DNA from: a virus
Lineage: Duplodnaviria; Heunggongvirae; Uroviricota; Caudoviricetes
Length of the DNA: 64,000 nucleotides
Reading direction: 5' to 3' (one strand)
Virus record (IMG/VR): IMGVR_UViG_3300045988_157791
Both the position numbers and the translations under genes were made by a program. Shown one piece after another: positions 38,599-58,186 of the stretch. The notes under the pieces were generated by a model. That model made no database searches and had not been told where the DNA came from. It was given only the letters and a program-made list of their open reading frames with translations. The stretch's first letter is position 1. Every line of letters starts with the position of its first letter.

Positions 38599-39230
38599 TA
38601 TTCGTCCTCCCCTTCACTTCCAACATCTGTCGCATCAAATTCGCTTAGAGCTTCTTCTTCCAACGTCTCAAGCAATTCGTCATCGATGATTTCAGGCTCG
38701 TCGTCTTCCTGACGTAATTTCGCCACCTGGGAAGGCGTAAGCTCACCAAATACCAGGTTCGGAATTTCTTCCTCGTCATTTTCCGCATGATCCATGCCCA
38801 ATGCTTTGGACGAAACTTCAAAGCATTTTGCAAGGGTATTACTGGCTCTCTGTAAGCTCTTGAGAGAATCCTCAATCGCCCCTAAAGGCTTACCCTCACG
38901 TTTGGCCGTAGTGACTTCGACCATCACCATCTGCCCCAACGCATACGCCCAGCCGTCATAACGTGTACGACGTTCTTCTATCTTTTCCGCACGGGCTTTA
39001 GCGCGAAGCTCTGCGTCAGATTTAAGAGACTCACGAACCATCTTCCCAACAGAGTCCGCGCCTTTCTCTAATCCTCGCTTTTTGAAATGTCTGGAGAGTG
39101 TTTCACGACGAATGCCGTACTCTTCCTCCAGCTTTGAGAGTGTATATTCGCCTGACGTCCATTTGGCTTCAGCTTCGGCCCACTCCGCTGGTGTCAGGCG
39201 AGTTTTTACCTCGTCTTTTTCGACCGTCAT
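38598..39230 (-). CDS. terminase small subunit (HTH-containing)
   Basis: N-terminal helix-turn-helix-like LSKLEEEYGIRRETLSRHF, very acidic C-terminus, coupled to TerL. Confidence 0.55.
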   Translation of the reverse strand: MTVEKDEVKTRLTPAEWAEAEAKWTSGEYTLSKLEEEYGIRRETLSRHFKKRGLEKGADSVGKMVRESLKSDAELRAKARAEKIEERRTRYDGWAYALGQMVMVEVTTAKREGKPLGAIEDSLKSLQRASNTLAKCFEVSSKALGMDHAENDEEEIPNLVFGELTPSQVAKLRQEDDEPEIIDDELLETLEEEALSEFDATDVGSEGEDE

Positions 39231-39269
39231 AGATCCCTCTAAAACACACAGAGCGCGTCCATGCGCTCT

Positions 39270-39313
39270 AAAACAACTTGTTTACTGCATCTGCTAACCA
39301 ACTTGTTTTCTGG
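39270..39313. promoter_or_regulatory. two AACAACTTGTTT operator-like half-palindromes upstream of terS
   Basis: AAAACAACTTGTTTA and CCAACTTGTTTTCTGG, same family as the parA and accessory-gene operators; adjacent hairpin AGAGCGC-GTCCAT-GCGCTCT at 39251-39271. Confidence 0.45.
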
Positions 39314-39701: not shown

Positions 39702-40592
39702 TTATGCCGGTAAAGCAATTTCTAACGGTTTATCCAAAGGTTGTTTGTCGAATGCCAGCAGTGGCAGCGTGTCAGGCAGTCGACGGCCAAAGTCAGGGTT
39801 TCGGTACACACCATACAACGGAGACGTAAAGCTCAGGTTGTGAATGTCCTTGAGCAGCTTCACAATGCTGGCCTCGTCCACCAGACTGTCGGCAATGTCC
39901 TGAATCGTCGTGCCACGATTCCGCCCAGCTTTTGCCAGGGAACTGTTCTTGTGGTAGTCCGCCACCAGATCACGCAGTGCACGGCGACGACGAGACTCGC
40001 TCATAGCGAACAACTCTTTGACGATCGCCTCGTTATCACCCGGGTCGGAGCGGAAATGGCGCTGGAACACACGCAGTGCACTTTCATAGCTCTTCGGTCG
40101 CTCAGGGCGGATGAACTTAAACCCTGCTTTCATGGCGAAGGGATTGTATTTGCTCATCGATGACTGGATCTCAATGATTGGCCGGTCATGCATCCTGCTA
40201 ACCAGGTTAATCATTCGATAAGAGACGCCTACGCCACGATACTGAGTATCCACAACTGAGCGACTGATCACCGCAAAGTTGTTATTCACGTACCGACCCC
40301 AGTACTGGTTAGCCACGGTGGTATTAGTGGTTGGTTTCAACTTAGGAAACATGCGGTGGCGAGGTGCCAGCAGTAGTTTCGGATAAGCCATAACCACGAC
40401 GCCCACCAGACGGTCATCAAGTTCGCAGCGATAGTAAGTTGGCGCGAAAGGTTTGCCGTCTGTTTTGTAGTGAAGCGACTTAAGAGCGTGCCAGTCCTCT
40501 ACAGTTCCCTTTGTGACTGTCATTCGTTCCAGAAAGTCCAGATGACGCGGAAACTCTTCAGGGCGGTAGCGTTTAATGATGATGTCCGTCAT
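39702..40592 (-). CDS. GNAT-like acetyltransferase-fold protein (296 aa)
   Basis: Putative acetyl-CoA binding motif TQYRGVGVSYRMINL; 4-nt overlap with the upstream ATPase gene. Confidence 0.4.
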   Translation of the reverse strand: MTDIIIKRYRPEEFPRHLDFLERMTVTKGTVEDWHALKSLHYKTDGKPFAPTYYRCELDDRLVGVVVMAYPKLLLAPRHRMFPKLKPTTNTTVANQYWGRYVNNNFAVISRSVVDTQYRGVGVSYRMINLVSRMHDRPIIEIQSSMSKYNPFAMKAGFKFIRPERPKSYESALRVFQRHFRSDPGDNEAIVKELFAMSESRRRRALRDLVADYHKNSSLAKAGRNRGTTIQDIADSLVDEASIVKLLKDIHNLSFTSPLYGVYRNPDFGRRLPDTLPLLAFDKQPLDKPLEIALPA

Positions 40593-41254
40593 GAATGGAC
40601 CTCATCATGACTACCATTGTGATATTCCACCTTCACGCGTTCTTTGTAGTGCTTGGTGATCTGCATATCCGGGCGCAGCGCGTTCTTCAGGTCTTCGTGA
40701 GTCGTCGCCACCATTACCGTCGCACCAACCTTTCGAGCGGCACGCTGGAGGTTAGATGCCACAACCTGAGCGGTTACACGGTCTAAAACAGCACCGAACT
40801 CGTCAGCAGCCCACACTTTAGCGCCTGACTCAATCAGTTTGGCAATCTTGAGACGATATTTCTGACCGTCTGACATTTCAGAAGGCTTGCGAACAAACAG
40901 ATATGCATCGTTCAGACCAGCCATAGATAACAATCCAAGCGCATCACTGGTCGTTTTGCCCAACTGATCGATGACGTTAACCTCATTATCGAAGGTAAAA
41001 TCATCGATGGAGGCTACAGACAGCCCTTCATCCTTCATCTGTCGTTGCAACTCGCGCAGCACAACGGATTTGCCGGAACCGGATTGGCCGGTGATGTACA
41101 CCACATCGCCCTGCTTCACTTCCAGCTCCAGATTGTCGTAAAGCGTCCACTCTTTTTCGTCCAGACCAAGCCCGAACGACTCAGCGATTTCCAACGTGCG
41201 CGTGGTTTTATTTACGCGTGTCTGAAACGATACGTTGATGATGTATTTGCTCAT
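40589..41254 (-). CDS. minimal ABC-type ATPase (221 aa)
   Basis: Walker A GQSGSGKS, ABC signature-like SDGQKYR, Walker B WAADEFGAVLD, H-loop TTHEDL. Confidence 0.65.
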   Translation of the reverse strand: MSKYIINVSFQTRVNKTTRTLEIAESFGLGLDEKEWTLYDNLELEVKQGDVVYITGQSGSGKSVVLRELQRQMKDEGLSVASIDDFTFDNEVNVIDQLGKTTSDALGLLSMAGLNDAYLFVRKPSEMSDGQKYRLKIAKLIESGAKVWAADEFGAVLDRVTAQVVASNLQRAARKVGATVMVATTHEDLKNALRPDMQITKHYKERVKVEYHNGSHDEVHS

Positions 41255-47957: not shown

Positions 47958-48188
47958 ATGTATGTTCTTATCGCTGGCGTTAACGTGCGCAATGAATATT
48001 TTGTTAATCGCATCGCTGGGATCGCTGGCTACGCTGGGCGCTCAGTCGAGTTTATCGATGAAACAACGCGTAAAATTGACTTATTGAACGACCAGGAGCG
48101 AAAAAAAGCTGAGGTGAACGACGCTGATATATTTTTAATGTTAAAAGCGTTTGTAGAAATGGGATTTGAAATCAGTTTACATAAATAA
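47958..48188 (+). CDS. hypothetical small protein (76 aa)
   Basis: AAGGAG ribosome-binding site upstream; flanked by two identical terminator hairpins. Confidence 0.5.
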   Translation: MYVLIAGVNVRNEYFVNRIAGIAGYAGRSVEFIDETTRKIDLLNDQERKKAEVNDADIFLMLKAFVEMGFEISLHK

Positions 48189-48193
48189 AATCG

Positions 48194-48220
48194 AGCGCCC
48201 ACTATGGGCGCTTTTTTCGT
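48194..48220 (+). terminator. intrinsic terminator, second copy of the same hairpin
   Basis: GAGCGCCCACTATGGGCGCT followed by TTTTTT. Confidence 0.7.
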
Positions 48221-48240
48221 TTCCAATACTTCCACAATAA

Positions 48241-48266
48241 CGCGCCATTGATGGCGCGTTTTTTAT
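48241..48266 (+). terminator. intrinsic terminator
   Basis: CGCGCCATTGATGGCGCG hairpin followed by TTTTTTATT. Confidence 0.65.
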
Positions 48267-48683
48267 TGTCTTTGACTCACTCCAACAACATAAAAATAAG
48301 CGCCAAAATAACGCCATAAACGCGCTTTTATATCCTTGCCAGTACATACCCATTACTTAACACATTAACGCGCTTAAAATGCGTTATATTGCGCTATAAC
48401 GTATGGCTAATCATTGGCTTTTAGTCTTGCTATGTGATCCGCGTTTATTTGTCGGCGCGGATCGGCATTTTGTGTTGTTTTGTATCCGCTCGCATATGAT
48501 TGCCACGTTGGGCAACGTGTACGCGCTTACAGTGATTTACCCACGGATTCACATAATCACATAGCGAAAGCTATCTGGATGGCCCAGGGGCTGAAACCCC
48601 CACCAGCGATACCCCAGCGCCGCTACGCAATTTCTGGCGCGATTCCGGGTTTCTCCCGCTCAGTTTTCTACATAAAGGCGAAT

Positions 48684-48803
48684 GCAGCCGTTTCCCGAAA
48701 AAATCCTGGCCGTTTCCCGTCGGCTCATGAATGCGTTCCTCGCCGTTTCTGAAAATTTCCCTGCGGCAGCTGGTGGCTATAGAGAAAGGGCCGTTTCTGG
48801 CCC
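48684..48803. repeat. iteron-like direct repeat array 1 (four units of GCCGTTTCCCG-AAAA type)
   Basis: GCAGCCGTTTCCCGAAAA, CTGGCCGTTTCCCGTCGG, CTCGCCGTTTCTGAAAA, GGGCCGTTTCTGGCCC at roughly 22-30 bp spacing. Confidence 0.6.
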
Positions 48804-48812
48804 TCTTCTCAG

Positions 48813-49295
48813 TTACACGCCATCAAGGATGTGGATGCGGTTGCTTGCGTATACATTCAGCATAAAGTTAGCGCAAAACAGTTTCCATGTGTCAACGCCA
48901 GCGGTATACGTAATGTTTTTGCATTTAATTGCATTGTTGGCGATCCGCATCCCCTGCGATACTGCTTCATCGTCGGAAAATTTGAACGACGATTGAGTTT
49001 TAATCCAGACAGAAATCTGCGTAGCGAACTCAATCAGCTTGGACTGGCAGAATCGCCCGGAGCGCACCGGAAAGACGAACGTTCCGAATCCAGAATTTAC
49101 CACATATGCTTTCTCAAATACCCGCGAGTAACGACGATTGCCAATGATGTTGCGTACAATAATGCATTTTTCTTGTTCTGACAGTTCTACCGTCTCATTG
49201 TGACGCCAGGCACCAAGTACTCGTTTTTCAATGTCAGAGAACGTTACAGCGATATTGCCATGTGCGGGTGCGTTTACAGTAGCGATAAAATTCAT
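48813..49295 (-). CDS. hypothetical protein (160 aa) with own operator cassette
   Basis: ATG at 49295 preceded by a conserved cassette (GATAAT-like box then AGAAAACAATTTGTT palindrome). Confidence 0.5.
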   Translation of the reverse strand: MNFIATVNAPAHGNIAVTFSDIEKRVLGAWRHNETVELSEQEKCIIVRNIIGNRRYSRVFEKAYVVNSGFGTFVFPVRSGRFCQSKLIEFATQISVWIKTQSSFKFSDDEAVSQGMRIANNAIKCKNITYTAGVDTWKLFCANFMLNVYASNRIHILDGV

Positions 49296-49335
49296 GATTA
49301 ATTCCTTATCGTAAATAACAAATTGTTTTCTTGTT

Positions 49336-49385
49336 GGCGTTAATTATCGTTGTACGAATAAGGCGTCAAAGTGGAAAGTTGCGGT
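49336..49385 (-). promoter_or_regulatory. conserved promoter/operator cassette
   Basis: AACAAATTGTTTTCTTGTTGGCGTTAATTATCG...GAATAAGGCG; near-identical cassettes at 49798-49853, 51451-51502, 51934-51988 and 54735-54810. Confidence 0.5.
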
Positions 49386-49499
49386 AGCCGGACGGGAACA
49401 GGTGGGTTTGTCGGTTGCCTGGAGGTAAGAGGTTGGTGTTTTTAGCCTGAGGGAAACAGGATGGTCATTTAAGGCCACCAGCATTGGTGGCCTTAGTCT

Positions 49500-49781
49500 T
49501 TAGTGGAGCAGACCGATGTCGATGGTATCCCCTGAATCACCCACACGGATCATCAGCATGGCGAAGGCGTTTAGTGGATAACTGGCGTGCCATTCAGGGA
49601 AGCGGTCATCTCGCATGAAGTCGGCAATGTCGTAAACGCAGCCCTCAAAGTGGAAGAATCGCGTGCTTACCTGCTCGTCATATTCCACATGATCCATTTC
49701 TTGCTGTTCTGTTTCCGGCAAGTCCAGCCATGATTCAAGGAATACATTTTGTGCTTTAGGGGTAATGGTGAAATCAGTCAT
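49500..49781 (-). CDS. small acidic protein (about 93 aa)
   Basis: Likely start MTDF at 49781 immediately downstream of a conserved cassette; Asp/Glu-rich. Confidence 0.5.
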   Translation of the reverse strand: MTDFTITPKAQNVFLESWLDLPETEQQEMDHVEYDEQVSTRFFHFEGCVYDIADFMRDDRFPEWHASYPLNAFAMLMIRVGDSGDTIDIGLLH

Positions 49782-50116
49782 GAGCATATCCTCACTGCGT
49801 AAACATGTTGTTTTCTTGTTGGTGTAATTATCGCAGTGTAGATAAGGCATAAAAGAAGTTAATACAGGCTGAATACACAAGAAAGGTTCTGGAAGTTGAT
49901 AACCAGGTTTCAAACTAACCTTCGGTTATTAAAAGTCATTTAAGGCCACCAATGCTGGTGGCCTTAATAATTATCGCCCGATTACGCTAAGGATCTTTTC
50001 CTCAACTGATTTGTTGTTGCGACTAAACTGCCTTGCGTATCTGATGACAGAAGAGGCGTTTTGCTTTCTGACCATCTCGGCTCTTTCCTTCAGGCGTTTC
50101 TTGAAATCGCCCATAT

Positions 50117-50533
50117 TTACCACCAGGCACGGAACGTCAGTCTATTATTGTGAAAGTCGTGGTTCTTAATCAGATCTTCCACAAGCTCTTTCAACTCCCC
50201 CACATCATGCCAGTAACCTTCATCGTACTCCTGACTGCCGAAGAAAAAACCTTCCCGGGTAGGCAAGTACTCTTCGCAATTACTTTCGTTTATGTGCATC
50301 AAATGAGCCTTCAGAAAACAAATGTCATTCATCGTTAATTCTAAAAGCTCACAATTTTCGACTTCACCTACGTTGCGCTCCATCCACCCAACGAGCGCAT
50401 TGAACTTACGGAAGTAAGCAACCTGCTTTCTGGATGCCTCGTTATTCAGATCGTTTTTAGGCTGCGTCTCGATATAGATATCAAGTCCCATGATGGTTTC
50501 CTTATTAAGTTGCTTCAGTGAAATCATTTTCAC
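50117..50533 (-). CDS. hypothetical acidic protein (start probably MGLDIYIE near 50491)
   Basis: ORF with AGAAAACAGATTGTT palindrome at 50549-50563 upstream. Confidence 0.45.
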   Translation of the reverse strand: MKMISLKQLNKETIMGLDIYIETQPKNDLNNEASRKQVAYFRKFNALVGWMERNVGEVENCELLELTMNDICFLKAHLMHINESNCEEYLPTREGFFFGSQEYDEGYWHDVGELKELVEDLIKNHDFHNNRLTFRAWW

Positions 50534-50608
50534 AAATCAGATAAGGCAGAAAACAGATTGTTATCGGGCATAAGAAAATGGCGCGGTTTACGCGCCATTC
50601 AAAGAGGA

Positions 50609-51070
50609 TTAAGCGAATACGCTTTCAGGGATTAAGGTGTCAGCAGGAATGCCGGAGGTAATGCGCAGGCCGTACTGACCAATCCAGGTAGTGTTGGTAT
50701 TCAGGCTGGAGGCGAATACGGTGTTAACCATATTCATCATGGTTTCAAACACCTCTTCATCAACCTGGCGGAAGTAGTTCTCGATTTTCAGCAGCAGCGG
50801 GTCAGTTGCATCGAAAATAGACTGGTATTGAGTCGCGTACTCGCCGCCGGAGGCATCACCTTTACGCACGATCGTACTGGCCTGGACTTCGGCACCAGTT
50901 TCGGTGTTGTACGTAACAACGGTGATTTTTGCCACATTCTTACCTTCGGCGGTTTCAGAGGCATAGTAAACATCAACTGTCAGTTTTTCGCGTTTAACGG
51001 TCATTTCACTCTCCGTAGTGTATTGGTTATTTTTATATTCTATGATCGTAAGTATGTACTTACAATACAA
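50609..51070 (-). CDS. hypothetical protein (start probably MTVKREK near 51004)
   Basis: TAAGTATGTACTTAC motif and a hairpin immediately upstream. Confidence 0.45.
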   Translation of the reverse strand: MYCKYILTIIEYKNNQYTTESEMTVKREKLTVDVYYASETAEGKNVAKITVVTYNTETGAEVQASTIVRKGDASGGEYATQYQSIFDATDPLLLKIENYFRQVDEEVFETMMNMVNTVFASSLNTNTTWIGQYGLRITSGIPADTLIPESVFA

Positions 51071-51130
51071 AAAAGCCCCGTAAGGATGGCGGGGCTGTCG
51101 TACGGTCGACTAATTACCACTTGCACATTA

Positions 51131-51472
51131 TCAGGCTATTGCCATCACTGATGCTCTCTGAATCTCTTGCTGGGCCACGCGGTTAACTTCCATCAAAGCC
51201 AGTTCGAGCTGATGTTCCGGCCACATTCTTTGAAATGCCACCCAGCCTTTTCCACGCTGGCGACGAACATTCATTACATAACGAGTAAAGGTGTTTTTAT
51301 CGAAAGACACCGCTGTTTCACGGAATAGACGAATAGAGGTTCCATTGGCAACGATATCCAGCAAAGTTAATTGAGCAACCAGTGCAGGCTTCTCTTTTCT
51401 CTTCTGGTCTTTGTCCAGACCAAGAACCAATGATTTTTTCATCACAACTCCGTAAACAACTTGTTTTCTCAA
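51131..51472 (-). CDS. hypothetical small basic protein (start probably MKKSLVLG at 51442)
   Basis: Conserved cassette AACAACTTGTTTTCTCAATGGCGTAAATAATACC directly upstream. Confidence 0.45.
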   Translation of the reverse strand: MRKQVVYGVVMKKSLVLGLDKDQKRKEKPALVAQLTLLDIVANGTSIRLFRETAVSFDKNTFTRYVMNVRRQRGKGWVAFQRMWPEHQLELALMEVNRVAQQEIQRASVMAIA

Positions 51473-51595
51473 TGGCGTAAATAATACCAGTAAGAAAACG
51501 GCTACAAAGCATATTGATCAGGTGCATGAGCGATATGCAGGTTCTTCCCTGCGGCTATAGAGAAATTAAGCCAGCAAAGCTGGCTTTGGTTGGGG

Positions 51596-51946
51596 TTACT
51601 CGAATACTTCAAGAAACTCCTGAACGTCCCAATGCTGGACGAGGTGAAGATAGACCTTAGAAATCACGTCATTTTCGCTATCGCATGTGAAGTAGTACTT
51701 CTGGCTGCGGTTGTATGTGTCCACACAAAATTCGCTCATATCCATAAAGTCAGCATCTTCACCCATGTCGCAAATCATCAAAGCAGGTGCGTCATCACGA
51801 GTCATCAGCTCAAGCACCCACCGCGAATTGATCAGAGTGGAAGACCAACCTTCTAACTCATAAAACTGATCAAACTCTTTTTGAGTTAATTTCTTGATTT
51901 GGTTGATGTCGATATTTGCAAACATAAAGCAACCCTTAAACAACAT
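51596..51946 (-). CDS. small acidic protein (start probably MFANIDIN near 51925)
   Basis: Conserved cassette AACAACATGTTTTCTTATTGGTGTTATTATCGC directly upstream; Asp/Glu-rich. Confidence 0.45.
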   Translation of the reverse strand: MLFKGCFMFANIDINQIKKLTQKEFDQFYELEGWSSTLINSRWVLELMTRDDAPALMICDMGEDADFMDMSEFCVDTYNRSQKYYFTCDSENDVISKVYLHLVQHWDVQEFLEVFE

Positions 51947-52283
51947 GTTTTCTTATTGGTGTTATTATCGCAATAACGCATAGGCGAAAAAGGATTTTAT
52001 TCCGGTGAATGTGGTTTTGGCAGTGAGTTTTCAGGTTCAGTACCGAGTACACTTTTTACATTATTCTGATTTAGTAGCCGAAGGTGGCTGGTGGGCAGAA
52101 TAATCATCTCCCCGAAAACCTACTGAAATCGATTGTGACCCGTTGGCTGTCTGGCACAATTACGCTGTAGCTGGGCATTCAGAGGGAATCCAGCGGTAAG
52201 TAAGTTCGCCTGCACGTGAGCGCCTCTCTTCTTCCCGCACATTACAGGTGGGTAGCCGCAACTCTCCCTCTCGCTATACCGGT

Positions 52284-52420
52284 ACGCCGCCGTTCCTGAA
52301 CCGGCATCGAGCCTTTTCCCGAAATCCACACAGGCAACTCGACCGTTTCCCTGAAAACCTCCAGCCGTTCCCCGAAGGCAACCCAGCCGTTTCTGTAGCG
52401 GGATGCAGCCTTTTCCCTGT
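52284..52420. repeat. iteron-like direct repeat array 2 (about six units)
   Basis: CGCCGTTCCTGAA, GAGCCTTTTCCCGAAA, CGACCGTTTCCCTGAAAA, CAGCCGTTCCCCGAAGG, CAGCCGTTTCTGTAGC, GCAGCCTTTTCCCTG; same orientation as array 1. The overlapping track ORF 52120-52578 is probably not a gene. Confidence 0.6.
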
Positions 52421-52579
52421 ATGGACCGAAGGCTGACCGTAGGGGTGTTACGGGGGATAAAATCAGGAGTTGAATAAATACGAAAAAGGAGGCGACACCC
52501 CTCCTTCCCTCCCAACTTATACATACCTGTCTTGTTCGCTATACATGTTGTGTTTTCTTCGTGTTTTATCTGTTTCAAC

Positions 52580-53400
52580 CTCTCTATAGGCGTTAATGCT
52601 CACTCCTTCCAGAACGTTCTATACGGCGACTATTTCTGTTGGTGAATTGGGTGTGTTGTTTTCCCTGTCGGTGTATGTGGTTTCGTTCGTTTTGCGATGG
52701 TTCTTCTATGGGGTGTTCTCGTCGTTTTGGTGATTGTTCTTCTCCGTGTATGGAGTAATGGCAGGTGGGCGATTCCTTTCGTTATTGTGTTTGAGTTGTT
52801 TGTCTGGAGTGCGTGAAGGGCTTTTGTAGTTATTCGTGTATTGGGTAATGGCGTTTCCCGTGATTGTTATGTTTCGTGTCTTTTGGGATTGAGAGAAACC
52901 TTGCGGTTACAGGCTTCGTTGGGGTTTCAGTGATTCTGATGTTTCTTCGCTGTTTGGGTAATGGCGTGTCGTGGGTATCGCGCGTATGAATGTTTTCGGA
53001 TTGCCTGTGAAAGTTAGGTTGGTTGTCCGGTAGCCTGGGAAGAAGAGGTGGGTCTTTTCGGTAGCCTGCCATAAAGAGGTTGGTTGTTTTTGGTAATGGC
53101 ATATGTGTTATTTAGTTGTTTTGTTATACCTGAAAATAAGTTGTTTATATGGTTATGTAACGCAACGGGAGCGATTTTGAGCGTGTGTTTTTGTTGGTAG
53201 TGTGTTGGGTCGTCTGTGGTGAAAATTGGACGCTGTGGCGCTGTCTGCTGCGTAGAGTTACGGGTATAAGAAGTGATGTGTGAAAACGTCAATTTTTTAG
53301 ACCAAATCGGGTGAAAGCGTTGACGTTTCGTTGATCTGTTATTTAGTTGTTTTCTTATTTGTATAAACAACCATAACCTATTGATATTTAATGATGTGAT
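52580..53400. repeat. about 800-bp strongly GT-skewed non-coding region with dispersed GGTAATGGC repeats
   Basis: Plus strand is G+T-rich throughout; GGAGTAATGGCAGG, TGGGTAATGGCGTT, TGGGTAATGGCGTG, TGGTAATGGCATAT at about 100-bp intervals; minus-strand ORFs are low-complexity. Confidence 0.55.
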
Positions 53401-53489
53401 TGCTGGTATGGGAGGGGAGTAGTGGCGATCAACGGATTCTTATAGAAAAGAATCAAATTGTGACCGCCATTATCAATGAGTTGCAACCG

Positions 53490-54059
53490 TTAGTTGTTCA
53501 GATAAACATTTGGAACACGGACGTAGAAGTTCCTGTCGCCGGTAAGTTCCAGAGTAATGTTAATGTCATTACCATTGTCTAGTGTAGCCGTTGCTCTATA
53601 GAACTTATCCGTCACCTTGTCCTCTATTGTCACCTTCATACATTTTGGTGCAGTCGAACCGTTATTCTCTTTCAGAATAGTTGTCACGAGAGGGCAGGCT
53701 GCTTCTTCAAGAGCAACCTCGTCCTTGTGTGGGATGCCGATGAAGATAACCCAAGCCAGCGACGCAACGATTATGATAAATGGCACTCTGCTGCCTTTTG
53801 TAATAGTCGCGCGCTTCCAGAGATAGACAGGCAGGAGGAATACCCCCCATAGAATTGAAGGTGGTTCACAGCCAGACTCCGATAGAGCCATTCTGTCAGC
53901 TACTAACAAACCGATGGTAGTTACACCCCCAATTATAATAGCGTAATTGGTATACTCTTCCGGCGATACTCCAAAGAAGAAAGGCATGAACGCTAGAATC
54001 CACGCATAAATGTTATTCAGAGGTTTTGTTTGTTGGTTCTGGGTTTCCATCACATCCAT
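53490..54059 (-). CDS. integral membrane protein (189 aa)
   Basis: Several hydrophobic helices (IYAWILAFMPFFFG, IIIGGVTTIGLLV, LWGVFLLPVYLW, FIIIVASLAWVIFIGI) and a hydrophilic C-terminal domain. Confidence 0.5.
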   Translation of the reverse strand: MDVMETQNQQTKPLNNIYAWILAFMPFFFGVSPEEYTNYAIIIGGVTTIGLLVADRMALSESGCEPPSILWGVFLLPVYLWKRATITKGSRVPFIIIVASLAWVIFIGIPHKDEVALEEAACPLVTTILKENNGSTAPKCMKVTIEDKVTDKFYRATATLDNGNDINITLELTGDRNFYVRVPNVYLNN

Positions 54060-54211
54060 TCCATCACATAAAAATCGCGTTTATATATTATCAATTTTCT
54101 CACTTGTATAACCTAAATACGCATCCGTTTATCAATCCACCTTCCACAAACATCAGCTTTAGCTATGAAAAATAACAATCTCAAAGTGAAAACCATTATC
54201 ATAGGAAACGA

Positions 54212-54397
54212 TTAGATGAGATGGTCTAATTCATCATCTATCATTGCTTTAACACTTGAGTCATTAACCCCGTATTGATTTATGAACCGTTTCAGCTCCG
54301 GTGAAAACTGAAGGTAGATATCGTGAGCGTTTTTCACTGTAGGTTCAACGCCACGCATTTCAAGCGCCTTTAGTAGATATGAGTCTTCTTTAAGCAT
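54212..54397 (-). CDS. hypothetical small protein (61 aa)
   Basis: Short ORF downstream of 54434-54742; weak evidence. Confidence 0.3.
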   Translation of the reverse strand: MLKEDSYLLKALEMRGVEPTVKNAHDIYLQFSPELKRFINQYGVNDSSVKAMIDDELDHLI

Positions 54398-54433
54398 AAA
54401 TTCTCCGTTGTCTAGTATGAAGCGATTGCCGGA

Positions 54434-54742
54434 TTACCATTGCCAGCACTCTAGCCCTTCAACGACCGGTGCACCACAATCAAAATGTACAGAGTCAAAG
54501 CCTACATCAAGTACTTTCTGAATGTTCGCAATCGCGCCCTCGGATATACCATATCGACGCAACTCATCTTTCCAGTCATCGTCCTGTAACCCGGCGTGGA
54601 CAATGCAACCGTACTCAATTTGTGAAACCCAATCCAGCTCATTGCTTGCGATCATGAATCGGCGAGCATCTTCCTCTGATGTATGAGATGAGCTGATCAA
54701 TGCCACCTGGTAGGCTTGGGTAATGTTCAACATTTCAACCAC
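54434..54742 (-). CDS. small acidic protein (start probably MLNITQAY near 54730)
   Basis: Two operator palindromes (AAAACAAGTTGTTTT and AGAAAACAAATTGTTTT) at 54737-54802 upstream. Confidence 0.45.
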   Translation of the reverse strand: MVEMLNITQAYQVALISSSHTSEEDARRFMIASNELDWVSQIEYGCIVHAGLQDDDWKDELRRYGISEGAIANIQKVLDVGFDSVHFDCGAPVVEGLECWQW

Positions 54743-54844
54743 TCCAAAACAAGTTGTTTTCTTATGTGGTTTATTATCTCCATCAACAAAAGGCAGAAAA
54801 CAAATTGTTTTAGGTACTGTGTAAATCAGAAGGGATTGTGTCTA

Positions 54845-54875
54845 TATGAAAATGCCCGGCGTGTTGCCGGGCATT
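54845..54875 (-). terminator. metG intrinsic terminator
   Basis: GCCCGGCGTGTTGCCGGGC hairpin just after the metG stop, followed by a T-rich tract on the minus strand. Confidence 0.65.
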
Positions 54876-54894
54876 GCGAAGAGAGGTTGTTTAA

Positions 54895-56928
54895 TTACTT
54901 AACCTGGTGGCCAGGTTTAGCACCAGCATCCGGGCTTAACAGGAAGATATCTTTCCCGCCGGGGCCAGCAGCCATCACCATGCCTTCAGAGATACCGAAG
55001 CGCATTTTACGTGGTGCCAGGTTAGCCACCATAATGGTGTGACGACCAATCAGTGCCTGCGGATCCGGGTAGGCAGAACGAATACCGGAGAAGACATTGC
55101 GTTTTTCACCGCCGAGATCCAGTGTCAGGCGCAGCAGTTTGTCAGAACCTTCAACAAACTCTGCGTTTTCGATCAGCGCTACGCGCAGGTCAACTTTGGC
55201 GAAGTCGTCAAAGGTGATGGTTTCCTGAATCGGATCATCTGCCAGTGGGCCAGTAACTGGCGCGGCAGCTGCTTTCACTTCTTCTTTAGACGCTTCCACC
55301 AGTGCTTCAACCTGCTTCATATCGATGCGGTTATACAGTGCCTTGAACGGATTTACTTTATGGCCCAGCAGCGGTTGCTGGATACCATCCCAGGTCAGTT
55401 CTGTATTCAGGAATGCTTCTGCACGTTCAGTCAGTTTCGGCAGTACCGGCTTCAGGTACGTCATCAGCACGCGGAACAGGTTAATGCCCATAGAGCAAAT
55501 CGCCTGCAGATCGGCATCGCGTCCTTCCTGCTTCGCCACCACCCACGGAGCCTGTTCATCGACATAGCGGTTAGCCAGGTCAGCCAGTGCCATGATTTCA
55601 CGGATAGCTTTACCAAATTCGCGGCTTTCCCACGCTTCACCAATCACTTCAGCGGCATCAGTGAAGGTTTTGTACAACTGCGGGTCAGCCAGCTCGCTTG
55701 CCAGCACACCGTCAAAACGCTTATTGATAAAGCCAGCGTTACGGGACGCCAGGTTAACCACTTTGTTCACGATATCGGCATTCACACGCTGAACGAAATC
55801 CTCCAGGTTGAGATCGATATCATCAATGCGCGAAGAGAGTTTCGCAGTGTAGTAGTAACGCAGGCTGTCAGCGTCAAAATGATTCAGCCAGGTGCTGGCT
55901 TTAATAAAGGTGCCGCGAGACTTGGACATCTTCGCGCCGTTCACCGTCACATAGCCATGAACAAACAGGTTGGTCGGCTTGCGGAAGTTGCTGCCTTCCA
56001 GCATGGCAGGCCAGAACAGGCTGTGGAAGTAAACGATATCTTTACCGATGAAGTGGTACAGCTCGGCGGTGGAGTCTTTCTTCCAGTATTCATCGAAGCT
56101 TACGCTGTCGCCGCGCTTGTCGCACAGATTCTTGAAAGAACCCATGTAGCCAATCGGTGCGTCCAGCCAGACGTAGAAATATTTGCCCGGCGCGTTCGGA
56201 ATTTCAAAACCGAAGTAAGGGGCGTCGCGGGAGATATCCCACTGTTGCAGGCCAGATTCAAACCACTCCTGCATTTTATTTGCCACCTGCTCCTGCAACG
56301 CACCGCTGCGGGTCCATGCCTGCAACATTTCGCTGAAAGAGGGCAGATCAAAGAAGAAGTGTTCAGAATCACGCATTACCGGCGTAGCACCAGAAACCAC
56401 CGATTTCGGTTCAATCAGTTCAGTCGGGCTGTAGGTCGCGCCGCAGACTTCACAGTTATCGCCGTATTGATCTGGCGCTTTACATTTCGGGCAGGTGCCT
56501 TTCACAAAACGGTCCGGCAGGAACATGCCTTTTTCCGGATCGTACAGCTGAGAGATGGTGCGGTTTTTAATAAAACCGTTTTCTTTCAGGCGAGAGTAGA
56601 TAAGTTCTGACAACTGGCGGTTCTCTTCGCTGTGCGTCGAGTGATAGTTGTCATAGCTGATGTTAAAGCCTGCGAAATCAGTCTGATGTTCCTGACTCAT
56701 TTCGCCAATCATCTGCTCCGGTGTGATACCAAGCTGCTGAGCTTTAAGCATGATCGGCGTGCCGTGGGCATCGTCGGCGCAGATGAAGTTGACCTCGTGG
56801 CCGCGCATTCGCTGGTAACGGACCCAGACATCAGCCTGGATGTGCTCCAGCATATGGCCGAGGTGGATTGAGCCGTTAGCGTACGGCAGCGCGCACGTCA
56901 CCAGAATTTTCTTCGCGACTTGGGTCAT
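54895..56928 (-). CDS. metG: methionyl-tRNA synthetase
   Basis: 677-aa protein from [31 protein letters not shown] with class I HIGH-type (HLGH) and KMSKS motifs and C-terminal tRNA-binding domain. The track ORF extends upstream to a non-ATG start. Confidence 0.95.
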
Positions 56929-57085
56929 AGTAGGCATTACTTCTTTGTAGTGAAAAGGGGCTTGATAGTAACAAAATGGCCTTATGTCTGCCATGTGATA
57001 ACAGCATTTCTCATAAATGATTAAATGTCGTAGCTGGAGTACACTACAAGGCGACAATTGCGCAAATTAAAATAAAGGAGACGGG

Positions 57086-58186
57086 ATGAGCGAGTCCAAA
57101 TCGCCGGATGCCCTGAGAGCAATGGTAGCCGGTACGCTGGCTAATTTTCAGCACCCAACCCTGAAACACAACCTGACTACGCTTAAAGCGTTACACCATG
57201 TTGCGTTGATGGATGACACACTGCATGTCGAACTAATCATGCCTTTCGTGTGGAATAAGCCTTTTGAAGACCTGAAAGAGCAATGTAGTGGTGATCTGCT
57301 CCGTATCACTGGCGCAAAGGCTATTGACTGGAAGCTGTCGTACAACATTGCCACGCTTAAGCGCGTCAAAAACCAACCAGGCATTAATGGCGTTAAGAAC
57401 ATTATCGCCGTCAGCTCAGGCAAGGGCGGCGTAGGTAAATCCTCCACGGCGGTAAATCTGGCACTGGCGTTGGCTGCTGAAGGTGCGAAAGTTGGTATTT
57501 TGGATGCCGATATCTATGGTCCATCAATTCCAACCATGCTGGGCGCGGAAAACCAACGTCCAACCTCACCGGACGGTACTCACATGGCACCTATCATGTC
57601 TCATGGCCTGGCAACCAACTCTATTGGTTATCTGGTCACCGACGACAATGCAATGGTGTGGCGTGGACCGATGGCCAGCAAGGCGCTGATGCAGATGTTG
57701 CAGGAAACTCTATGGCCTGATCTGGACTATCTCGTTCTCGATATGCCGCCGGGCACTGGTGATATTCAGTTGACGCTGGCGCAGAACATTCCTGTAACTG
57801 GTGCGGTTGTGGTAACTACGCCGCAAGACATCGCGCTGATCGATGCGAAGAAAGGCATTGTGATGTTCGAAAAAGTCGAAGTGCCGGTACTGGGTATCGT
57901 CGAAAACATGAGTGTGCATATTTGCAGTAACTGCGGTCATCACGAGCCAATTTTTGGCACCGGTGGCGCACAGAAACTGGCCGAGAAATACAACACGCAG
58001 TTGTTAGGCCAAATGCCACTTCATATCTCTCTTCGTGAAGATCTGGATAACGGAACACCAACCGTTATTAGTCGTCCAGATAGCGAATTTACGGCTATTT
58101 ATCGTGACCTCGCAGATCGCGTTGCTGCCCAAATGTATTGGCAAGGTGAAGTAATACCTGGCGAAATCGCATTCCGCGCAGTGTGA
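57086..58186 (+). CDS. apbC: Mrp/ApbC Fe-S cluster carrier ATPase
   Basis: Deviant Walker A SSGKGGVGKSST, CSNCGHH Cys motif, divergent from metG with about 157-bp spacer, the usual enterobacterial arrangement. Confidence 0.9.
   Translation: MSESKSPDALRAMVAGTLANFQHPTLKHNLTTLKALHHVALMDDTLHVELIMPFVWNKPFEDLKEQCSGDLLRITGAKAIDWKLSYNIATLKRVKNQPGINGVKNIIAVSSGKGGVGKSSTAVNLALALAAEGAKVGILDADIYGPSIPTMLGAENQRPTSPDGTHMAPIMSHGLATNSIGYLVTDDNAMVWRGPMASKALMQMLQETLWPDLDYLVLDMPPGTGDIQLTLAQNIPVTGAVVVTTPQDIALIDAKKGIVMFEKVEVPVLGIVENMSVHICSNCGHHEPIFGTGGAQKLAEKYNTQLLGQMPLHISLREDLDNGTPTVISRPDSEFTAIYRDLADRVAAQMYWQGEVIPGEIAFRAV

Follow-up and report, generated by a model that had tools for sequence, protein, structure and literature searches.

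What use might a phage-plasmid have for some 800 bp of DNA that lacks a gene and in which one strand is dominated by G and T? The window analysed here, a stretch of 64 kb, is an SSU5/pHCM2-type phage-plasmid of E. coli. E. coli, Klebsiella, Salmonella and Enterobacter frequently harbour elements of this type, and resistance, defence and housekeeping cargo is carried next to the gene-free block of which this tract forms part. Knowing the function of the block would help to explain the switch from around five copies to lytic amplification, as well as the build-up of cargo just to its right. Our search of the literature found no paper describing either the tract or the block. The initial annotation had offered a long non-coding RNA, a single-strand initiation or recombination zone, and a packaging or segregation site as possible roles.

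The strand asymmetry on which those suggestions were based is real, and far outside the range of the rest of the window. In a sliding-window computation the highest G+T content of any 800-bp stretch was found at 52631-53430, where it reaches 0.706 compared with a mean of 0.501 (sd 0.028) and a runner-up of 0.591, so the notion that the skew might lie within the normal range fails; this is by far the most extreme asymmetry in the window. Base fractions over 52580-53400 are A 0.175, C 0.134, G 0.295 and T 0.396, and in 300-bp steps the GC skew rises to +0.48 and the AT skew falls to -0.60. A hypothetical leftward transcript of 52520-53420 would consist of 40% A, 29% C, 14% G and 17% U. The excess of G+T is also a property of the relatives, being present (0.60-0.71) in 56/56 homologous loci measured, and it is stronger in conserved alignment columns (0.77) than in variable ones (0.63), as expected if it is the repeat motifs that carry the skew. 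Cumulative GC skew across the whole plasmid tracks gene orientation and shows no origin-like inflection, at the tract or elsewhere.

The tract is the right half of the largest gene-free block of the element, which spans approximately 51950-53480 (about 1.5 kb). A gene-free repeat block is found in all SSU5-type phage-plasmids, and the block has matches in 838 plasmid records from Escherichia, Klebsiella, Enterobacter, Salmonella, Citrobacter and Cronobacter. Partial copies in large Klebsiella plasmids are transposon-truncated fragments that have moved with adjacent restriction-modification cargo and are uninformative on function. When homologues are aligned, blocks of approximately 100% identity are embedded in a region that is otherwise around 58-60% identical overall. 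A second non-coding region at 48.2-48.8 kb is a sister of the 1.5-kb block. No other non-coding DNA of the element is as well conserved as these two, which makes them prime candidates for its missing cis elements. Homology between clades stops just to the right of 53423-53469, where variable cargo genes start. The tract is conserved even in the Klebsiella clade, where transcription of the neighbouring cargo genes leads away from it, and this argues for a role that is independent of transcripts arriving from the cargo side. An exact 17-mer scan of GTDB genomes returned mostly chance matches, the true loci numbering two. The neighbouring 100-aa ORF family is confined to SSU5-like elements (at least 57% identity), and distant analogues were not found by this route.

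A protein-coding function can be ruled out, and the early impression that the tract lacks a credible ORF holds. RefSeq annotation is gene-free at the tract in the E. coli plasmids listed, and no shared ORF of at least 12 codons with a consistent start and length is present in 70% of 39 representatives. Relatives that are 90-97% identical carry frameshifting indels of 1, 2 and 11 bases in the tract, the longest open frame differs from sequence to sequence, and there is no period-3 signal in the tract, the control region being too short to be informative for this last measure. The Cyrano record does annotate two ORFs over the block, and both are at or near the RNA-seq floor in 5/5 lysogen conditions.

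What the block contains is a series of repeats and invariant segments, the positions of which are given in Table 1. The spaced GGTAATGGC-containing units that had been noticed at roughly 100-bp intervals are present: GTAATGGC starts at 52755, 52845, 52958 and 53093, always on the + strand and at spacings of 90, 113 and 135 bp, and the window as a whole holds 10 copies compared with the 1.9 expected from shuffles. Every clade has 4-6 GGTAATGGC units, always oriented one way, at irregular spacings of 41-142 bp that show no helical phasing. The tract motifs were found nowhere else in the element, including the vicinity of repA. Operator-like words, also remarked upon at the outset, occur as TAGTTGTTTTGTTA at 53113 and AGTTGTTTTCTTATTTGT at 53345, each inside one of the two AT-rich 25-nt direct repeats, which are 92% identical.

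Table 1. Features of the gene-free block and the tract, numbered along the 64-kb window.
Feature	Position	Strand	Remark or basis
Left boundary: leftward early promoter (TGnGATAAT -10) with 13-bp palindrome AAACAACATGTTT (51938-51950) in leader	51938-51995	-	Drives 116-aa ORF 51596-51946
Chi site GCTGGTGG	52087-52094	+	Kept in Klebsiella clade
C-rich array, six RCC[G/T]TT[T/C]C[C/T] copies	52286-52425	+	Conserved in homologues
Central block ACGGGGGAT.AAAA ... TTGAAT ... GCGA.CCCCTC ... CTTATAC	52436-52526		Nearly invariant across genera
GT-skewed tract, whole	52520-53420 (usable limits, approximate)	+	+ strand 69% G+T
Short GT-rich tandem repeats	52636-52745	+	Period 29-36 bp; 24 bp in other clades
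Unit 1, GTTCTTCTCCGTGTATGGAGTAATGGC	52736-52762	+	Nearly invariant across genera
Unit 2, 3' end GGGTAATGGC	52824-52852	+	Repeat comparison
Unit 3, 3' end GGGTAATGGC	52943-52965	+	Repeat comparison
31-bp-period tandem array CGGTAGCCTG-N-AAGAGGTGGGT-TTTT	52997-53089	+	One degenerate copy, then good copies at 53028 and 53059
Unit 4, TGTTTTTGGTAATGGC	53085-53100	+	Repeat comparison
AT-rich 25-mer, copy 1, ATGTGTTATTTAGTTGTTTTGTTAT	53103-53127	+	Carries one operator half-site
13-bp palindrome copy, AAATAAGTTGTTT	53134-53146		Conserved in every clade
Invariant block TAACGCAACGGGAGCGATTTTGAGCGTG	53158-53185		Conservation
Inverted repeat AAACGTCAA / TTGACGTTT	53284-53328		Arms 9 bp, 27 bp between
AT-rich 25-mer, copy 2, ATCTGTTATTTAGTTGTTTTCTTAT	53334-53358	+	Starts inside GATCTGTTATTTA
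Right boundary: inverted repeat TGGCGATCA / TGACCGCCA	53423-53469		End of inter-clade homology

The C-rich copies to the left start at 52289, 52311, 52342, 52364, 52386 and 52408 (spacings of 22, 31, 22, 22 and 22 bp), and four similar copies lie in the second non-coding region at 48687-48790. A 31-nt GT-rich repeat family has copies at 52677, 52713 and 53185, and the copy number of the 31-bp array is around 2.0-3.3 in aligned relatives, two close relatives having an extra 31-bp insertion. In the SSU5 clade the Chi site is replaced by a + strand ORF of 80 aa, and this ORF is missing from the E. coli and Klebsiella clades. At 53284-53328, the two TTGAC words can be scored as -35 elements, weak and placed back to back (leftward TTGACG-18-TATACC, rightward TTGACG-16-TTTAGT). 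Directly beyond this, GATCTGTTATTTA (53333-53345) matches the oriC-type 13-mer GATCTnTTnTTTT at 12/13 positions, and the 60-bp windows 53101-53160 and 53338-53397 have a GC content of 22%, which is percentile 0 of the 64-kb window.

Turning to RNA, an Rfam search of 48000-58000 at E values up to 1 supplied the covariance-model search first proposed as a check; it gave three weak matches, none inside 51950-53480. Folding of the tract shows no excess stability over shuffles (z of -0.98 for the - strand and +0.93 for the + strand), consensus folding of 18 sequences yields only 0 to -10 kcal/mol per 120 nt with no covariation, and there are no conserved hairpins inside the tract. The E. coli clade has a leftward intrinsic terminator in the central block, in which a stem at 52509->52483 is followed by TTTTT; it is specific to that clade, and in this block, the one analysed pair by pair, compensatory changes affect 0/9 pairs. 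A known or structured RNA is rejected on the Rfam, folding and covariation results. Published RNA-seq of lysogens points the same way, both genes flanking the block being expressed while the block itself sits at the detection floor, and the stable or structured long non-coding RNA suggested initially is disfavoured. As in ROOL, GOLLD, CsrB and CrcZ, the non-coding stretch is long and a short motif is repeated 4-6 times, but unlike those RNAs the tract has no Rfam match, stable fold, covariation or detectable lysogen RNA, and the motif that it repeats is not known as a binding site for CsrA or Hfq.

An RNA of another kind might belong to the early lytic phase. The tract might give rise to an unstructured, CA-rich non-coding RNA of approximately 650-770 nt, read leftward early in the lytic cycle from a weak palindrome promoter near 53150-53165 or 53263-53292 and ending in the E. 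coli clade at 52509->52483. The GCCAUUACC and ACCCACCUCUU repeats of this single-stranded RNA would make it a sponge or platform, either for a protein or for complementary RNAs. The predicted transcript is almost free of secondary structure, and the persistence of the bias in variable columns is as expected under selection on one strand. Of 39 representatives, 36 and 38 conserve weak promoter-like sites that point leftward, but the candidate -10 elements are poor and miss the conserved A or T. The terminator at the end of the tract in the E. coli clade is canonical, but its hairpin is not conserved beyond that clade and does not covary. Other palindrome copies are in leftward early leaders, and the sequence next to the 53134 copy (TTGCG-TTACAT) is similar to these early promoters. 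However, the signal of CYRAN_103 (53014-53370, leftward strand) never leaves the range of log2 2.3-4.3 across the five lysogen conditions, whereas the palindrome-bearing early gene CYRAN_105 rises to log2 7.5-7.8. We consider an RNA of this type unlikely.

The same lysogen data contain a sharp drop at the right boundary, where the Cyrano signal is log2 9.2 for CYRAN_102 and 2.8 for CYRAN_103, a fall that takes place over some 100 nt in which no canonical intrinsic terminator lies. This would suit a Rho-type transcription barrier that keeps lysogeny-expressed cargo transcripts out of the early lytic genes, in which leftward cargo transcripts would become long, untranslated, C-rich and G-poor RNA on which Rho loads and terminates. 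The tract has the sequence looked for in a Rho terminator, namely at least 70-80 nt that are C-rich, G-poor, unstructured and untranslated. It is the longest leftward C>G stretch in the window (679 consecutive 78-nt windows with C/G of at least 1.5, compared with 142 for the runner-up), with a median C/G of 2.3 along a continuous run of about 750 nt that has no ORF. In its composition, its lack of structure and translation, and the collapse of RNA on entry, it is like known rut regions. However, rut needs only about 80 nt and no specific sequence, which leaves a length ten times greater (800 bp), the invariant motifs and an equal T>A skew unexplained, and the tract is conserved in Klebsiella, where the cargo reads away from it without a leftward gene upstream. 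A barrier effect may also be the by-product of another function, and as the function of the tract we regard it as distinctly improbable.

Several well-known DNA functions were set aside. The tract is not the RepA plasmid origin or incA, since repA is not adjacent and both iterons and DnaA boxes are absent from it. In pLR-48_2 (98% identical) repA is at 1-1056 and the tract at 74.3-75.3 kb, and the true RepA origin of the element, with its 21-bp ATCCACTATAGAGAG iterons and its DnaA-box-like TTATCCAC[T/A] words, is around 37 kb from the tract. Like the IncFIB/P1-type iteron origin and incA, the region has direct-repeat arrays in non-coding DNA, but it does not have those iterons and words. There are no DnaA boxes in 51900-53520, which removes a DnaA-box origin from consideration as well. 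The suggestion of a recombination zone is rejected in its Chi-based form, as Chi-like words in the tract are no commoner than its composition predicts (1 and 8 words with one and two mismatches, compared with 0.8 and 8.7 in composition-matched simulations). A CRISPR array or solitary CRISPR-like repeat does not agree with the irregular spacing of 41-142 bp, and the repeat hairpin is not conserved: on reading the unit sequences, a 4-bp hairpin is possible in unit 1 only, and likeness to type I-F CRISPR repeats (around 16/27) is confined to the same unit. Resemblances to the consensus sequences of XerCD/cer-like sites, Tus-Ter, matS, F-type nic and P1 parS box B, judged by eye, were each partial, clade-specific or limited to a single 8-mer.

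The one-directional repeat arrays flanking a conserved centre, the palindrome copy and two half-sites inside the region, and the silence of the region in lysogens would all be in keeping with an array of protein-binding sites. Such an array need not be replicative: it could be a pac or cos site, a centromere, or a nucleoprotein site at which the repressor or the ParB-like proteins silence or loop the DNA. Distances within the element do not favour this. The terS and terL genes are about 13 kb to the left of the tract, and the SSU5 and Cyrano records both begin in the gap that immediately precedes terS, making the packaging site proposed at first unlikely. A segregation site is likewise unlikely given that the ParA-like gene expressed in lysogens is around 43 kb away, and lysogens show no more than floor-level RNA for the ParB-like genes next to the terminase. 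The absence of the tract motifs from the rest of the element also counts against the idea, and we think a non-replicative array improbable.

The palindrome may offer a connection to the lytic cycle. The palindrome/promoter module is also found upstream of the ORFs at 49316, 49801, 51454 and 54747, and all other palindrome copies in this part of the element belong to the leaders of early transcription units that read leftward. Genes behind the palindrome promoters rise in the macrophage conditions of the published Cyrano lysogen RNA-seq, which the source paper describes as genotoxic, and we read the palindrome as a putative operator.

Taken together, the tract is best explained as belonging to a composite cis-acting region of DNA that is peculiar to SSU5-type phage-plasmids, extends over about 52290-53470 and has the tract as its larger half. 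Our tentative preference is that the block may work in the lytic cycle as a DNA element bound by protein, probably as an origin of replication. The region would be made up of head-to-tail binding-site arrays, C-rich and 22-bp-spaced on the left of the invariant centre and GT-rich on the right, with the GT-rich arrays leading into the two AT-rich 25-mers, between which one copy of the palindrome lies. One or more conserved phage DNA-binding proteins may load on these arrays once the lysogenic repressor is lost, upon which the region would serve as a lytic origin or enhancer for the phage helicase-primase and Pol III replisome. The G+T skew would then come mainly from the GT-rich repeat units all pointing one way, and the C-rich, G-poor, unstructured and untranslated nature of any leftward transcript would be a side effect of it. 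The anatomy, the conservation, the non-coding nature, the missing RNA structure, the silence in lysogens and the distance from the plasmid origin are observed; protein binding, the link to replication and repressor control are what we infer.

Two features looked for in an origin are present: phased direct repeats in non-coding DNA (the 22-bp and 31-bp arrays), and easily melted AT-rich DNA adjacent to them, just after the 31-bp array. It is the 22-bp phasing, the 31-bp array and the one-way GGTAATGGC units that give the repeats the look of initiator-binding sites. Also counting for a lytic origin are the position of the block in the largest gene-free interval, its retention across at least six genera, the placing of a palindrome copy between AT-rich elements, and a gene complement that includes the element's own helicase, primase, Pol III alpha, ligase, RNase HI and UvsW-type helicase. 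That RNA explanations do not fit, in terms of fold, covariation, Rfam or lysogen RNA, also counts in its favour. Against an origin are the lack of DnaA boxes and of a GC-skew inflection, the unphased GGTAATGGC units, and the failure to find a candidate initiator, the neighbouring small ORFs having no family assignment. An 800-bp skew that persists in variable columns also exceeds what is seen in known origins. As regards the single-strand initiation proposed at the outset, a replication cis element is the best fit, but a hairpin-type single-strand signal does not suit a tract without conserved hairpins, and the features best fit a double-stranded repeat-array origin.

Known phage origins share some of this organisation. 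In P1 the C1-controlled promoter P53 reads through oriL, C1 operators are dispersed, and there is a separate RepA/iteron plasmid origin. The SSU5-type element is similar in that its regulatory site is scattered before many early units, with one copy at a lysogeny-silent cis region, but oriL depends on RepL and is part of the coding sequence of repL, whereas the tract has no ORF and no sequence similarity to it; the P1 operator is also asymmetric, unlike the 13-bp palindrome. Origins of the P4 ori + crr and lambda types resemble the region in having phased direct repeats (22-bp and 31-bp here) abutting very AT-rich DNA, and the second locus 3.6 kb away with the same C-rich repeat recalls the P4 ori/crr pair. 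The region differs from these in being much longer, and in its several unrelated repeat families, its 800-bp skew and the lack of phasing of the GGTAATGGC units.

A lytic origin could also be primed by transcription, with a rightward G-rich transcript forming a persistent R-loop over the tract, as at ColE1 and T4 origins. A + strand GC skew of up to +0.48 over about 800 bp and the RNase HI and UvsW-type helicase of the element are consistent with this. The 80-aa + strand ORF of the SSU5 clade points towards the tract, but its absence from the E. coli and Klebsiella clades leaves those without it; there is no conserved sigma-70-like promoter reading rightward into the tract, the only candidates on the + strand being 52133-52160 and, in about half of the representatives, 52433-52463, and RNA signal is absent in lysogens. 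Priming of this sort seems very unlikely.

The G+T level of 0.63 in variable columns is a hint that selection acts on one strand. Were the bias between strands itself functional, which we think doubtful, the tract would work as a single strand after repressor loss, and two forms of this can be proposed: an unstructured CA-rich RNA of about 700 nt with 4-6 GCCAUUACC and 2-4 ACCCACCUCUU sites, or a GT-rich strand of DNA that becomes exposed when initiation is transcription-primed or proceeds through an R-loop, by means of a T4-like UvsW/RNase H toolkit. A functional bias would represent unusual selection on base composition over nearly 1 kb in a phage, and the single-strand reading, if true, would describe a previously undescribed lytic-switch or origin element in hundreds of clinical Enterobacteriaceae phage-plasmids. 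As a smaller point on composition, and against a null model that is invalid for related sequences, TT/GG helical periodicity gave weak signals near 10-11.5 bp.

The GT-skewed tract lies in an SSU5/pHCM2-type phage-plasmid of E. coli. Across 52450-53450, identity is 98% with plasmid pLR-48_2 and 97.6% with Cyrano, a phage that strain LF82 carries as its plasmid prophage. Matches in E. coli number 248, every one of them on a plasmid. Landmarks were placed by mapping the window onto pLR-48_2 (see table). Small leftward genes of unknown function surround the tract, and variable cargo starts directly to its right. The initial annotation had described about 800 bp of GT-skewed non-coding DNA, and our skew calculation bears this out: 52631-53430 is the window's most G+T-rich 800 bp, at 0.706 compared with a mean of 0.501 (sd 0.028), and the next-highest stretch reaches 0.591. 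Skew maxima in the tract are +0.48 (GC) and -0.60 (AT). The spaced repeats it had reported are also present, with GTAATGGC found four times in the tract, always on the + strand, and 10 times in the whole window (1.9 expected), and its two degenerate operator words are both parts of a 25-nt direct repeat. We likewise found no credible ORF. RefSeq annotates no genes at ~51950-53490 in the E. coli plasmids among the matches listed, and the matches listed in the plasmid search mostly have no annotated feature beneath them. Relatives at 90-97% identity are separated by frame-breaking indels (1, 2 and 11 bases) and by the gain of one 31-bp repeat unit, and 39 representatives share neither a kept reading frame nor a small ORF of consistent start and length.

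A conserved block, ~51940-53475, has the tract as its right half and matches 838 plasmid records (Klebsiella, Escherichia, Enterobacter, Salmonella, Citrobacter, Cronobacter) and 12 phage records. Fifty-six homologous loci were gathered, giving the 39 representatives at 97% identity, and the G+T excess is kept in all 56 (0.60-0.71). Many blocks are essentially invariant despite an overall identity to the window of 57-63% in most of the more distant clades. By alignment column, G+T is 0.77 where conserved and 0.63 where variable. One matching contig, JAEWTL010000044.1, is labelled a Bacillota metagenome-assembled genome and carries the SSU5-type block; it is probably mis-binned enterobacterial phage-plasmid DNA. 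The tract's right end also occurs on unrelated large Klebsiella plasmids, carried along with the DUF262 and type I restriction-modification cargo next to it; on one, the truncated match is ~115 bp from the end of a Tn3-family transposase gene, and on the other an IS903B copy lies ~5 kb away.

Features of the tract, its block and the surrounding element (window positions; "invariant" marks the essentially invariant blocks)
Feature	Position	Details
repA	~37 kb clockwise of tract	
Structural operon, terS/terL	~13 kb left of tract	
Predicted intrinsic terminators (+)	48193-48213, 48239-48260, 48435-48464	within 48190-48812
GCCGTTTC[C/T] repeats	48687, 48709, 48742, 48790	also in C-rich array
C-rich array	left of tract	six RCC[G/T]TT[T/C]C[C/T] units; spacings 22, 31, 22, 22, 22 bp
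Centre	52436-52526	invariant
CTATACGGCGA	~52617	invariant
Unit 1, GTTCTTCTCCGTGTATGGAGTAATGGC	52736-52762	invariant
GTAATGGC	52755, 52845, 52958, 53093	
GT-rich repeats	right side	period 24-36 bp
GGTAATGGC units	right side	4-6; irregular spacing 41-142 bp; every unit invariant
Tandem array	right side	period 31 bp, ~2.0-3.3 copies; one extra unit in two close relatives; repeat invariant
25-nt direct repeat	53103-53127, 53334-53358	both invariant
Palindrome AAACAANTTGTTT	7152, 10082, 39271, 39296, 49316, 49801, 51454, 51938, 53134, 54747, 54798, 61666	copy at 53134 invariant
Block	53158-53185	invariant
GGGTATAAGA		invariant
Inverted repeat	53284-53328	invariant
Boundary inverted repeat	53423-53469	invariant
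Cargo, window	right of tract; 54895-57057 and next gene to right	metG (methionyl-tRNA synthetase), apbC/mrp; chromosomal type; annotated thus in Cyrano and pLR-48_2
Cargo, Klebsiella	right of tract	DUF262, type I restriction-modification system
Cargo, Enterobacter	right of tract	GIY-YIG nuclease

An Rfam search gave no match within the block, and for a 673-nt candidate transcript neither strand has a fold more stable than its shuffles (z -0.98, +0.93). Consensus folding of 18 diverse sequences yields 0 to -10 kcal/mol per 120 nt, the only three elements to stand out all being inverted repeats. Only in the E. coli clade does the leftward hairpin at 52509->52483 have the form of a canonical terminator, and its pairs show no compensatory changes. 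Promoter scoring across the representatives revealed no conserved rightward promoter into the tract, and a rightward R-loop seems very unlikely. Two weak leftward candidates, TTGACG-18-TATACC and 53476->53449, are present in 36 and 38 of the 39 representatives, and a weakly transcribed CA-rich early RNA is conceivable, if rather doubtful. Published LF82 RNA-seq (PMC9928086, S1 Table; ten samples, floor log2 2.32) places CYRAN_103 (53014-53370, annotated leftward) at log2 2.3-4.3 in every sample and CYRAN_104 (~52120-52524) at 2.6-4.7, while the flanking CYRAN_102 and CYRAN_105 reach 9.2 and 7.8. With both ORFs annotated over the block near the floor and the flanks expressed, the block is silent in lysogens, and the contrast between CYRAN_102 and CYRAN_103 further indicates that the right-hand gene's RNA does not enter it. 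For a leftward RNA, no other C>G stretch comes near the tract in length, a point in favour of a Rho-type barrier. In Klebsiella, however, no gene reads into the tract and it is still conserved; we regard such a barrier as quite improbable. Elsewhere in Cyrano, the hypothetical protein gene CYRAN_43 (record 40268-40822, outside the window), adjoining the integrase and repressor, stands 723-fold over prophage background in lysogens.

Primary-sequence conservation and head-to-tail repeats of variable copy number, taken together with the lack of an RNA signature and of lysogen RNA, point to a protein-bound DNA element. The reading we tentatively prefer is that the block would act as a lytic-cycle origin or replication enhancer. 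This fits best because phased arrays adjoin very AT-rich DNA (the 31-bp array borders two of the window's most AT-rich 60-bp segments, 22% GC), the region contains a palindrome copy, the element encodes a helicase, primase and polymerase of its own to which no origin is assigned, and a second locus has the same C-rich repeats. The right-hand repeat families share one orientation, and the skew would arise mainly from GT-rich units all pointing one way. Reverse-complementing the GT motif gives GCCATTACC, which agrees with the C-rich motif GCCGTTTCC at 7 of 9 positions; the two arrays may thus belong to a single motif family in opposed orientations, a joint pattern defined post hoc and a lead only. 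An origin or enhancer does not account for how long the tract is, nor for variable columns also being G+T-rich, and these two points leave room for single-strand readings; some other protein-binding role is unlikely. No description of the region was found in the searchable literature, and it fits known cis-element kinds only loosely.

Three further identities were rejected. The plasmid origin lies elsewhere, with repA and that gene's own 21-bp iterons and TTATCCAC[T/A] words; the tract is not a CRISPR-like array; and it is not a Chi cluster, though the element as a whole is Chi-rich (GCTGGTGG, 17 copies, 6 on the + and 11 on the - strand, compared with 1.4 expected), at about the density of the E. 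coli chromosome. The tract is also distant from the terminase genes and parA. Against Pfam, a 61-aa ORF at 54212-54397 (-) matches the T7 gp5.9 RecBCD inhibitor weakly and below threshold (E 0.006; 16.9 bits, cut-off 24.5). A second conserved non-coding region, 48190-48812, lies between convergent genes, and its predicted terminators are followed by a ~230-nt core (48500-48730) that is ~100% identical among E. coli, Salmonella SSU5 and Klebsiella elements. It shows no significant fold (z -1.3, -1.1), matches no Rfam family, and also has in common with the C-rich array a ~60-nt module and an adjacent Chi.

The palindrome occurs 12 times in the window (0.53 expected). It usually stands in a small leftward gene's leader, with a TGnGATAAT -10 lying 13 nt upstream of it; before small leftward ORFs, the Shine-Dalgarno and ATG follow it closely. 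The tract holds one copy and two half-sites within the 25-nt repeats. Cyrano genes behind palindromes are low in LB and up in macrophages, CYRAN_105 rising from log2 2.3-4.4 to 7.5-7.8, and the source paper calls the macrophage environment genotoxic (PMC9928086). On this basis the palindrome is read as a putative operator of a damage-responsive repressor, its dispersal being reminiscent of the scattered C1 operators of P1. In the terminase region (39200-39310), two copies precede a strong hairpin (AGAGCGC-ATGGAC-GCGCTCT) and GTGTGTTTT, just upstream of an ORF beginning ATGACGGTCGAAAAAGAC; gene boundaries here are approximate, and the hairpin looks like a leader terminator before a late-type gene.
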